A stretch of DNA of 64,000 nucleotides from Dictyostelium discoideum (taxonomy: Eukaryota), in assembly GCA_000004695.1 (NCBI GenBank), contig CM000152.2:3232001-3296000 (forward strand), read 5' to 3'. A program made the translations under genes and the position numbers. The notes under the pieces are model-generated. The model was given only the letters and a program-made list of their open reading frames with translations. It ran no database searches and was not told the origin of the DNA. Positions 17,762 through 32,093 of the stretch are shown here, in pieces (within the stretch, counting starts at the first letter, position 1; each line of letters begins with the position of its first letter).

Positions 17762-19911
17762 TTATTGTTGTTTTAAAGTTTCCATATAAGTATAGAAAGC
17801 AAATTCATTACTATTGAGACCATATTTATAAACGAAACGACTTGCTAAATAAGAACCAAAGATAGCTTTAACGTATGGTTCTGGTACACGTTCCATAATT
17901 TTATCAACACCTAAAAGATTTAATAAAACCTTTGGACAAGCAGCAGAGATGATTTTACGTCTGAGTGATTGATCAGTCCAAAGGGAAGAGGTTTGAATTG
18001 AATCATTGAGTGAATTGATTTTATTTGATAAGAGATCGGAAAGGATTGAACGTGGAGTTTTAGTTGATTCATGTTCACTCCAAATACATTCAAACTCTAA
18101 ACGAGCATTTGATTCAATGGTATGATGAACGTCTTTAATGTAATTTTCATAAAACTCTGGTACTACATTATCCTTGACACACATATGTCTATCGAATTCT
18201 TCATCATTCAAAGCCAAAGCGGCCAAGACCTCCAAAGAGGAAGAAGTGACACCACCTTTATTGGCAGAGGCATCCTTAAAGATGATAGCACCCTTCTCTT
18301 CGATCATTAATCTTGCCTTTTGAGTAAAGAATAAATTAGCACCTTCAACGATGATTGGGAAACGAGATTCACCGGTTGCAGTGAACATTTTATCGACATT
18401 TGTCAATTGTACAGATTCTGGTCTACCACCGCATGGTACAAAGATATCGGCATTACATAATGGATTGAGATGGAAGTTATTTCTAAAGATGAGACCACTT
18501 TCGACAATGTCACCATTTGGTAATTTTACATCATTCTCTGCAACATCAACAAAGAAACCTTGTGGAGAGAGTTTTGATTTATCAAAGTAACGAGCCATTT
18601 GACGTTTACTAGCGAGACGACCAATCTCATCACGATTGAGACCTTGTGGATCCAAGAGTACACCGGAACCATCGACGATACCAATGGTTTTATCTTTGGA
18701 GATTTTAATTTCATTTGAACCTAAATCACCATCTGGACCACCAGTTTGGAATTTTGTGCAATCGGCTTCGTTTCTACCCAATTTAGCGAGTGTACCAAGA
18801 ACGTATTGATGAATGGATCTAGTGGTCATACCATAGAGATCATGAGGAATACCACCTCTACTTAATGATTTACCAGTGGTAAAGGCTTTCCAGAAATGTG
18901 CACCACGATCTTTAGCGTGACTTGAAGCCCAATTCATGAAATCGGCAGTACCCTCATCTGGACCGAGGAAGAGGATCTCTGGTTTGGCAAAGTGATCGAC
19001 AATCTCGTGATTTGGTAATAAAAGATCCAATAAACCATCGATATATTTATGGAAAGCAACTTCAGCTTTACTTTGATGATCGGCAGACAAGAGAATAGTA
19101 CCCTTTGAACCACCTTCAGCAATATCCTTATTCTTTGATTGTTGAGTATTGGCTAAATTGTAATTCTCATCAAACAATGATGAAGAGTTATGATCGTATT
19201 GAGTGGAATTACCAGATCTAATGATACGAATACCACCACGAGAAATATCACGGAAACGAATATGGAAACCACGGAATTCAGAACCAACAACAAAGAAAAC
19301 TGCGTATGGTGTTGAAACGTATTCTTTAGTTGAGAGGAAACCTGGATCCAAACGGAATGATAAAGCTGTTTTAGTTTGTTTATAGAAATTTGTCTTTAAT
19401 AAATGACGATTGAATGATAAAATTGCTGAAAAGATTTGACTATCCAATTCATTATTTACTGTCTTTTTAATTGATGCTAAAATCTCTGAACCATGTTGAA
19501 CATCATATTTTTGTGTATTATTACTGTTGCTACCACTGAAATGGAACTTTTCAAAGTCTTGATATAAAATTTTAATCAATTCTGGATATTGTAAAACTGC
19601 ATCTCTAACACGACCTTCTGTGAATGTATCCTTACTTAAACGAGTCTTTAATTGTGCTAACATTGATTGTTTGGTTGAATCATCACCAATTGCTGCTGCC
19701 AATGCTGAATACTCTGTAGCATATCTATTCAAAAATTGATAAGCAAATTTCCAACAAACATATGCATATGTAACTTCTGGGAATGATAATTGATGTGATA
19801 AAAATAATGGTGTTAATGATGTTCTTGGTAAAACATAAACTAATGATGCCTAAAAAAATAAAAATAAAAAAAATTAAAAAATAATTAGTTACTAATTAAT
19901 TAAATAATAAT

Positions 19912-19978
<67 letters not shown>

Positions 19979-21025
19979 CTTACTTGTTCAGCAATTTTTG
20001 AAATTTTAGTATTAATATCAACATCTGGATGTAATGGACGTAAATAAATTGAATAAATTGTAATACCATTTGAGAATTGTTCAACATATTTATGAGTTGC
20101 ATACATTTGATGAAAATGGTAGAGTTCACCAATTGCAGACCAATAGGAGTGAGTTGAACCACGACGATAGGCAATGACTAAACGAGCACCATTGGTTTGA
20201 TATGGATAATGTTTAATGACTGGACCTTGTTTACCAACAGACTTCATTCATAACTTCTTGATAGATCTTTTTGGTGAGTTCAGATGATTTCTCAATGAAT
20301 GAGATATCACCAATTTTGAAGAGATCAGTCTCGGTGGCGAGTATTTCATCGTTTTTACTTGCAGAGAGGTCATTGGTTGCTTGTGGGAATACTGGTTTTG
20401 TCAAGTAGTAAAGACGGAGATGAACTGGCGATGAATTCGATACTGTACCAGTGGTACGATAACATGCCAAACGGAAACCGTGTGGTGGTAAGTTGGTGCC
20501 AGTTGGAGGCTTTGGTGAGACTGGGAATGGAGCAACGGCAACTTGTTGTGGACTTAATAATTGTTGGTCTTGGTGGTATCCTTCGCCAAAGTAGTGTGAT
20601 TCAATTGCGTGTTCAATCATCATTGCTGGTGAATCTCTTTTACCTGGGTTCGATGGGGTGATGAATGTGGCACTACCCTCGTTCTTGCTGTGAAGATGTA
20701 CTTCCAATTTGGCACCAGTTGCATGTGATACCATCTTTGCTGCATATAATGAAAGGATGTGACGTGCAATCACAATTGATGGTGTACTATCGAAATAGTT
20801 GCTATCAAGTCCTAACTTACAGTAGAACCAATCAACCTCTGGTTCAACTCTTGAACTTTCAATTAAACGTTCAGACTTTAATAAACTTTTAACTTCAACA
20901 GCTTGTTCTTTATATGGATTTGACTCTAATAAATTTGCTAATGCATCACCATCTTCTTTAGTGAAATATTGAGTCTTTGGTTGAGCTGCAATCTCTTGTG
21001 AAATTGTTAAATTTTGGTTTAACAT
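17762..21025 (-). CDS. glud2: NAD-specific glutamate dehydrogenase, large (about 1040 aa, GDH2-type)
   Basis: complement(join(17762..19849, 19984..21025)). ORF 17762..19732 holds the GDH catalytic core: FHIRFRDISRGGIRI, NKDIAEGGSKG, FQTGGPDGDLGSNE, FVPCGGRPESV, IVEGANLFFTQKARLMIEEKGAIIFKDASANKGGVTSSSLEVLA. It is colinear with yeast Gdh2 and Neurospora NAD-GDH. The upstream exon (ORFs 19900..20247 and 20231..21025) gives the MLNQNLTISQEIAAQ...EVDWFYCKLGLDSNYF...GPVIKHYPYQTNGARLVIAYRRG... N-terminal region. Intron 19850..19983 (GTAAGT ... 50-nt poly-T ... ttttttag). Problem: the two upstream ORFs are in different frames and overlap at 20231-20247 (...YQEVMNEVCW* versus MKSVGKQGPVIK...). This implies a 1-nt excess in an otherwise GC-rich, conserved exon. 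Confidence 0.85.
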
Positions 21026-22508: not shown

Positions 22509-23234
22509 ATGGATCAAAGAGATAGTAGATCTCCATCTCGTTCACCAGGTGACGATAATAAAAAAGATATAGATAGTAAAAATAATGGTGGTGCTGTAAA
22601 TAACAACTCAAATGGCAGCAATACTAATAATGGTAATTCAGCAACAAATGCTAACAATGATATAGTTATGAAGGATGAAAGTAATAGTAATAACAATAAT
22701 AATAATAATAGTAATACCAGTAACAATGGTACAAATAGTAATAATAATAGTAATAACAACAATAATAATAATCGTGATAATAGTAGATCACCTTCACCAA
22801 GAGGTAGAAGAGGTGACTCTAAAGAACGTTCAAAGAGTAGAGATAGAAACGATAGAGATAGAGATAGGAGTAGAGATAGAAACGACAGAGATAGAGATAG
22901 ACATGATAGAGATAGAAGTAGAGATAGATATGATAGACATGACAGAAGCAGAGAAAGAAATAGAAGTAGAACACGTTCAAGATCTGGTTCAAGAAGAAGA
23001 AAGTCTATCGATTTTAGCTTATTAGCTGAAAGAAGAGTTTATGTAGGTCGTATCTCAAATAAAACTACAAGAGAATCTCTAGAAGATTCTTTCCTTAAAT
23101 TTGGTAAAGTTCTATCGTGTGATGTTAAAAATGGTTATGCTTTTGTTGTATGTATTAAAAAAATAAAAAAAAATAAAAAATAAAATAAAAAATAAAATAA
23201 TAATAATAATATTGTTTAATTAAAAATTACTAAC

Positions 23235-23278
<44 letters not shown>

Positions 23279-23741
23279 AAATTATTCAACAGGAATTTGA
23301 TAATGAAAAGAGTGCAAGAGATGCCATTGAAGAAATGCACGATTCAATTGTTGACGGTGAAAAGATTCTTGTAGAGAAATCACACAGTGGTAAAAAACAT
23401 CCAGATGAATGTTTCATTTGCAGAGGTCGTGGCCATTGGGCTCGTAGTTGTCCAAAAGGTGGAAGGTATGTAATTTTATTCTCTCATAAATTTTTCCGGG
23501 TTTTTTTTTTTATTTTTTTTTATTTTTTTTTTTTTTTTTTCAATTTTGGGGAATTTTTATTTTTAGAGGAATCAATAACTTTTTGTTTTTTATTTTGTTT
23601 GGACCAAATAATTGGCATCTCAATAAATAATAAGTAATAAATAATAATAAATAATAAATAATAAATAATAAATAATAAATAATAAATAATAATAAATATA
23701 AATAATAATAGTAATAATAGTAATAATAATAATAATAATAA

Positions 23742-29084: not shown

Positions 29085-29591
29085 TTTATTTTTATTTGTT
29101 TTTTTTTTTTAAAAAAAAAATAGTAATAATTATTGATGAATTTAGTTTAAAAATTAAAAAAATTAAAAAAAAAAACCAAAATAAAAAAATAAAACTAAAA
29201 AAAAAAAAAGATATTTTTAATTTTTTTTTTTTTTTTTGATATAGATATTTGTTGAATGGCCACCAGGATAAAAAAATTCGTACATGAAAGAAAAAAAAAA
29301 AAATGCCTTCGCACCCCGCATGCCAATTACCACCCCTTCATAAATTTTTTTTTTTTTTTTTTTCAAAATTCACTTTTTTTCAATCGCAGTGTAAATAAAA
29401 AATAATTAAAATAATAAAATAAATTATAAAAATTTAAATTCAACAAAGTTTATTATGAATTATTTTGGCTATTTTTTAAAAAAAAAAAATAAAATCTTGG
29501 TTTTTTTTTTTTTTTTCTAAGGTTGAAAGTCTGATTTATAAAAGGTGAGAAGTTAGTTTATTTTTACAAATATTTAAAATAAAATTATTTT

Positions 29592-30965: not shown

Positions 30966-31742
30966 ATGATAGATCTTTTCGATTTTGTAGTATTATCTTC
31001 ATTCATCATTCTTTTACCATTGGTAACTGATTTCCTTAATAATACATTTCCAAATGCAAAGATTGGTAGATTAGCACAAGAAGTTGTGGGCATGATATTG
31101 GTATTCTTTATTGTATCTTTAATATTTGCAGGAGTATCATTATGGTATACCCATTTCTTACCATTTTATTATACAAAATCATTATTAATAAGTTTTGATA
31201 CTTTAAATTTATTAGATCTATTAAAATTCATTAATACTGATAATAATAACAACAGTGGTAGCAGTATCTTCAATAAAATTACATTCTATTTTCACATTTT
31301 CTTTACAATTCAATTAGTTGTTAATTTATATTATTACTACTATCAAACTATAACTGCTGATAATTTCTTACCAAAAATTTCAAAAAATAAACAAATTCAA
31401 TTATTTGCTAGTGAGACAACTACAACAACAACAACAACAACTGATAATATTAATGAAAAAAAAAATAAACTTTGTGGTTTATGTGATCAAGTTAGTGATG
31501 GAAAATGGTCAACAATTAATAAACCGAAATCACATCATTGTAGAATTTGTAAACGTTGTATTGATTCAATGGATCATCATTGTCCATTTGCTGCAAATTG
31601 TATTGGTATAAATAATCATCATTATTTTATACTATTCATAGGTTATACTGTAATGGCATTAATTTATGCATGTTATTTATCATTCTTCCCATACTATCAT
31701 TGTATTGTAAATTATAAAAATTATGTTAGTTTATCTTTTACC

Positions 31743-31777
<35 letters not shown>

Positions 31778-32093
31778 TTTTAAACAATTAGCTCAATCAT
31801 GTGCAAAATTCAATAAATATAGTTTTATATTTTTATGTTGTTGTTTAATTGTAACTGCCTCATTTGGTATACTTTTATTTCAAACTTATTTAATCATTAC
31901 AAATTCAAAAACTGTTCAATTACTTAGTCGTTTAAAGAAATCAAAATCATTTTTAGATTGGTTTAAATGGTTATATCAAAATTTTAAACAAAATGCTTCC
32001 ATAAATAATATTTATTCACTTTTTCCAAATTTTAAATTTTATAATTTAATTATACCTTACTATAAAAGGAAAATAAATAAATTAAATAAATAA
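30966..32093 (+). CDS. DHHC-type protein S-acyltransferase (palmitoyltransferase), multi-pass membrane protein
   Basis: Single 375-aa ORF. TM helices flank the zinc-finger DHHC cysteine-rich domain CGLCDQVSDGKWSTINKPKSHHCRICKRCIDSMDHHCPFAANCIGINNHHYF. A-rich context precedes the ATG. Confidence 0.85.

Follow-up and report, generated by a model that had tools for sequence, protein, structure and literature searches.

The first exon of glud2, the gene for a large NAD-specific glutamate dehydrogenase, is read in two overlapping frames on the Dictyostelium discoideum AX4 reference chromosome 3, which raises the question of whether the gene is broken in the organism or only in the deposited sequence. 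We examined this in a stretch of 64,000 nucleotides (GCA_000004695.1, contig CM000152.2, positions 3,232,001 to 3,296,000; hereafter the window), and all positions below are those of the window. The features of the gene are collected in Table 1.

Table 1. Features of glud2 in the window.
Feature	Position	Strand	Description
glud2, whole gene	ATG at 21025, end 17762	-	D. discoideum AX4 reference chromosome 3; 3.26 kb
Exon 1	21025 to 19984	-	
Frame-A ORF	20231..21025	-	264 aa; real Glud2 N-terminus to Val262, then spurious Cys, Trp and TAA
Frame-B part, exon 1	19984..20247	-	MKSVGKQGPVIK...KIAEQ
Surplus T	20239..20239	-	gene position 787 from the ATG (T787); between GTC (Val262) and GTT (Val263)
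Single genuine intron	19850..19983	-	GT...AG, 134 nt, AT-rich; splicing it yields the 1042-aa public protein
Exon 2	17762..19849	-	695 codons plus stop; Bac_GDH_CD and ELFV_dehydrog catalytic domains

glud2 encodes an NAD-specific glutamate dehydrogenase

When T787 is left out, the gene model encodes 1042 aa with a computed mass of 117.14 kDa, and the Pfam profiles GDH2_N, GDH_2nd, Bac_GDH_CD and ELFV_dehydrog all score above their gathering cut-offs on it, with GDH2_N matching frame-A residues 37-98. By its domain architecture and size, the product is an NAD-specific glutamate dehydrogenase of the 115-kDa class. The same four-domain architecture is seen in Glud2 (Q54VI3, DDB_G0280319 / DDB0233691), the ortholog of yeast Gdh2p, and the sole difference between Q54VI3 and the window gene is an extra genomic base that the CDS annotation skips. 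Yeast Gdh2p is 38% identical to D. discoideum Glud2, and recombinant DdGlud2 made without the T (subunit mass 117.1 kDa) shows NAD-dependent activity, reducing NAD+ in the presence of glutamate and oxidizing NADH in the presence of 2-oxoglutarate and ammonia (Black et al. 2021, PMC7949102). This active enzyme is a target of the Legionella effector Lart1. Exon 2 is identical in a genomic contig, L007, from the Logan assembly of the independent run SRR26869267. That contig, assembled from public short reads of the same lineage and present in 8 samples, has been annotated with a 656-aa ORF beginning at TTG, as a prokaryotic gene caller would place it although the DNA is eukaryotic.

The coding sequence is split by one surplus nucleotide

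Frame A closes with ...KKIYQEVMNEVCW (...EVMNEVCW) at a TAA stop at 20233-20231, while frame B opens at an ATG at 20247-20245 and reads MKSVGKQGPVIKHYPYQTNGARLVIAYRRG... to the end of the exon at 19984. The two frames thus overlap at 20231-20247, inside exon 1, and the 40-mer across the junction, GAAGTTATGAATGAAGTCTGTTGGTAAACAAGGTCCAGTC, is the minus strand of 20257-20218; both the overlap and this local sequence are as the initial annotation had given them. The correct frame-B reading starts at a Val (20238-20236), and the Met-Lys-Ser that precedes it in the frame-B ORF consists of out-of-frame readings of ...AATGAAGTC.

The two frames are not chance ORFs, because both match GDH_2nd at consecutive profile positions. 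Positions 45-117 of the profile lie at frame-A residues 182-262, ending at Val262, and positions 118-205 lie at frame-B residues 4-86, the first of which is the Val just described, so that the profile breaks at 117|118 with none of its positions lost or repeated. Distant homologues from other amoebozoans and fungi (at most 57% identity) align across the junction without a gap, and the spacing between Tyr255 and Gly267, both invariant, is equal in all of the distant homologues aligned. Together, the gapless alignments and the constant Tyr255-Gly267 spacing indicate that the window carries exactly one nucleotide too many.

The switch between frames is confined to 18 nt (20250-20233), and deletion of any one base in this interval gives an open coding sequence of 1042 codons, with 12 possible junction peptides. 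The initial annotation had seen no intron between the frames, and this held: a switch interval of 18 nt fits none. The sole in-phase GT..AG pair would define an intron of 13 nt (20254-20242), and this model was rejected, as it gives a 1038-aa protein that lacks four conserved residues and is not found in any relative. We also rejected a separate downstream gene starting from the ATG at 20247 (783 aa), which is not on record and would leave GDH_2nd halved.

At 20245-20250 the sequence reads UGAAUG, the frame-B ATG directly following a frame-B TGA by coincidence. Since the ATG adjoins the TGA, the artefactual split resembles two real overlapping ORFs (264 aa and 783 aa) and may mislead gene callers.

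The surplus base is T787

Since the Pfam profile, exact protein look-up and the DNA of other genomes agree, the surplus base can be identified as the T at 20239 (GTC-T-GTT), and the repaired peptide reads ...MNEVVGKQG.... The GDH_2nd profile is continuous only when ...E-V joins V-G-K.... With the T, the junction reads GTCTGTTGG / GAAGTCTGTTGG, and without it the junction reads GTCGTTGG / GAAGTCGTTGG. The model lacking 20239 (...EVMNEVVGKQGPVIK...) is identical by exact look-up to Q54VI3 / XP_641372.4 / EAL67386.2 and to KAM9949756.1, so that the comparison with the public protein entry proposed in the initial annotation returns the translation without the T. The repair proposed there, dropping the G of GAA(G)TCT to give NESVGK, is incorrect, since NESVGK is not in the public collection while NEVVGK is, and the base to drop is the T at 20239 instead. 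In the same public protein collection, neither the 264-aa ORF, nor the 783-aa downstream model, nor the NESVGK repair had an exact match. The truncated 264-aa ORF likewise had no exact match in public assemblies, a result that is weakly informative, as Logan contigs break in AT-rich low-complexity sequence.

Other genomes lack T787

T787 is absent from all five of the other genomes compared. One of these, GCA_054883475.1 (CM142509.1), encodes a protein identical to the T-less model. Across the 3.26 kb of the gene, its only differences from the window are the missing T787 and an intron poly(A) that is 16 nt shorter; in the window this coding-strand poly(A) is ~56 nt long and lies at 19917-19973. 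There are no substitutions between the two over 7.2 kb, and over 23 kb T787 is the only indel in complex (non-repetitive) sequence, with the remaining differences consisting of A/T homopolymer or microsatellite lengths and a few substitutions within or next to these repeats. Because the differences amount to run lengths, few run-associated substitutions and one T, GCA_054883475.1 appears from its sequence to come from the same NC4-derived laboratory lineage as the window. By elimination, it is probably the AX2-214 assembly that Holland et al. 2025 (PMC12745789) built de novo from Nanopore and Illumina data, and the accession of its protein, KAM9949756.1, falls in the same series as those of that project's other genomes.

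Within 7762-31025, the length differences between the window and GCA_054883475.1 number ~25, all in A/T homopolymers or microsatellites, and the newer assembly is almost always the shorter. The cause may be that long reads compressed these runs in the new assembly, that the old assembly has them too long, or that the runs are truly unstable. The low-complexity substitutions between the two are at 29176, 29164, 29155, 23500, 14320 and 8891.

The other four genomes, those of two wild D. discoideum strains (GCA_054859385.1 and GCA_054859355.1), D. citrinum (GCA_054859325.1) and D. firmibasis (GCA_036169595.1), all lack the T and read GAAGTC/T-GTC/T-GG at the junction. Their changes near the junction are confined to third positions, e.g., GTC/GTT and GGT/GGC/GGA, and EVMNEVVGKQGPVIK is present in 8/8 of the other proteins from group-4 Dictyostelium (D. 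discoideum and its closest relatives). The initial annotation had named independent sequence with one base fewer as the mark of a simple error, and such sequence is provided by GCA_054883475.1 and by these four genomes.

We counted codon differences against the T-less window CDS on each side of the junction. In the wild D. discoideum strains, the ratio of synonymous to non-synonymous differences ranged from 15/1 to 21/1 upstream and from 33/5 to 34/4 downstream, and in D. firmibasis it was 70/9 upstream and 128/26 downstream. Read without the T, the gene is thus under strong purifying selection on either side of the junction. In the laboratory lineage (AX4 and the AX2-type assembly GCA_054883475.1), residue 110 is His (~20698-20696) and the protein ends in ...KQQ (residue 1042, ~17767-17765). 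In every wild D. discoideum strain and sister species, residue 110 is Gln and the protein ends in ...KQ. His110 and ...KQQ are thus specific to the laboratory lineage.

The absence of T787 is already on record

The curated gene model already leaves this base out. Black et al. 2021 (PMC7949102) report that the dictyBase CDS omits "a single base (T787)", which they describe as "removed from the mRNA". As reported, the exons were amplified from AX2 gDNA, site-directed mutagenesis was used to take out T787, and the final construct was verified against the dictyBase CDS, to which it was identical; the paper gives neither an intermediate sequence nor a primer list. We found no glud2 variants or primers in the supplements of Bloomfield 2015 and Black 2021, and our literature search for proteomics on DDB_G0280319 or Q54VI3 found nothing. 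Curated dictyBase models rest on ESTs, published sequences and sequence similarity (PMC2686522). Since the curators chose the right base out of 18 whose removal restores the frame, and did so years before any other genome of D. discoideum or a close relative was available, they probably had transcript evidence for leaving out T787. One-base gaps that model-organism databases place in gene models to offset frameshift errors of a reference sequence are comparable, and the glud2 case fits this ordinary class, in that the glud2 CDS likewise skips a genomic base not found in independent genomes, and differ in that the reason for the glud2 gap is one that we infer. The absence of T787 is therefore already documented in the dictyBase/GenBank CDS and by Black et al. 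2021, and the apparent frameshift is almost certainly not a biological feature.

Origin of the surplus T

We consider it very likely that the T at 20239 is an insertion error of the 2005 AX4 reference, or a change private to the sequenced clone, that curators have already offset. The spurious T would stem from a base-calling, cloning or assembly error in the Sanger reference of 2005 (or at most from a change that only the sequenced DNA carries), and it would split an intact 1042-codon CDS into two overlapping frames. The real gene of the organism would be expressed, read GAA GTC GTT GGT (E-V-V-G) and encode a normal full-length enzyme and, since curators skip T787 in the CDS, nothing would occur at the level of the RNA or the ribosome. 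An insertion in the reference agrees with what was found: an assembly of the same lineage lacks the base, and both the orthologues and the curated CDS are single-frame at that position. Contig L007 is silent on T787, as it stops within the intron, short of the junction. The AX4 DNA itself probably lacks T787. Resequencing of AX4 turned up ~1,900 shared differences from the reference, which were put down in part to reference errors (PMC3466296). Among the three alternatives raised in the initial annotation, it is the assembly or sequencing indel that stands, given the five genomes with one base fewer and a public protein that is the T-less translation.

Two points count against an error. An inserted T outside a homopolymer is not the commonest type of Sanger error. 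In addition, Black et al., read literally, suggest that their AX2 clone had T787, although they may simply have designed the mutagenesis on the basis of the dictyBase entry.

The T could instead be a real and very recent frameshift, giving a null or split allele private to the AX4 stock or clone that was sequenced, and this we regard as improbable. The T is present in the deposited reference, laboratory strains do gain private mutations, AX4 has known private rearrangements and the gene is otherwise intact, as expected of a very recent lesion. Judged as a pseudogene or null allele, it shows a single lesion; the rest of its sequence matches the AX2-type copy, and constraint on it across species is strong. 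However, the curated AX4 CDS skips exactly T787, which implies AX4 transcripts without the T, the same-lineage assembly GCA_054883475.1 lacks it and the truncated 264-aa product is nowhere on record. The strain-specific null allele put forward in the initial annotation is for these reasons unlikely. Far less probable still is that the T is present in AX2/AX4 DNA but lost by the time the mRNA is mature, whether by deletion editing of this one nucleotide, by transcriptional slippage or as a one-base "intron". Were this so, a nuclear housekeeping transcript of Dictyostelium would undergo slippage, or deletion editing of a single nucleotide at a specific site, and we are aware of no deletion editing of nuclear transcripts in Dictyostelium. 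No spliceosomal intron can be 1 nt long, and with a Nanopore plus Illumina assembly of the same lineage lacking the T there is nothing to remove; four further genomes lack it as well. Removal from the mRNA is what Black et al. 2021 (PMC7949102) say if taken at their word, but their wording most simply paraphrases the gapped dictyBase gene model and is no evidence of RNA editing.

The two frames could also be used as they stand, by a programmed +1 ribosomal frameshift (e.g., at UGG-UAA-A) or by termination-reinitiation at the overlapping UGA-AUG / UAA of a T-containing mRNA, yielding the enzyme at full length or in two pieces, a reading to which we give next to no weight. The frame-A stop does lie 14 nt downstream of the frame-B AUG, and +1 shifts can be promoted when a stop codon occupies the A site (prfB, antizyme); beyond this, nothing but the two frames themselves speaks for such a mechanism. 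Like antizyme (UCC-UGA-U), yeast Ty1 (CUU-AGG-C) and prfB (CUU-UGA-C), glud2 shows +1-related overlapping frames with an upstream stop, but unlike these programmed sites it lacks both a shift-prone heptamer and a stimulatory structure, and orthologues do not share the arrangement. No known shift-prone heptamer occurs in 20250-20231, none of the frame-A codons AUG AAU GAA GUC UGU UGG permits +1 re-pairing of the tRNA, and the 120 nt downstream fold no better than shuffled sequences (z = +0.5). Moreover, a shift at UGG-UAA would produce NEVCWKQG rather than the conserved NEVVGKQG, and the two-frame layout is itself not conserved, with 5/5 other genomes and 8/8 other proteins being single-frame. 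This lack of conservation effectively refutes a programmed frameshift, and the recoding site suggested in the initial annotation falls with it for want of conservation, motif and structure.

With an insertion in the reference as the preferred explanation, the base to ignore is window 20239 (T787). A raw translation of AX4 chromosome 3, automatic gene callers and screens for pseudogenes or recoding will each make glud2 look broken, though it is intact.

Neighbouring genes

Two other loci in the window were noted. An intronless neighbour of glud2, at 30966-32093 in this AT-rich DNA, has a translation identical to XP_641378.1 (D. discoideum AX4), which places the window on AX4 reference chromosome 3. 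On the plus strand, ORFs at 22509-23450 encode an Asn-rich protein with Arg/Asp/Ser repeats and an RRM-like segment followed by a CCHC zinc-knuckle (CFICRGRGHWARSCP), and together they resemble a gene for an SR-type splicing factor, interrupted by an intron.
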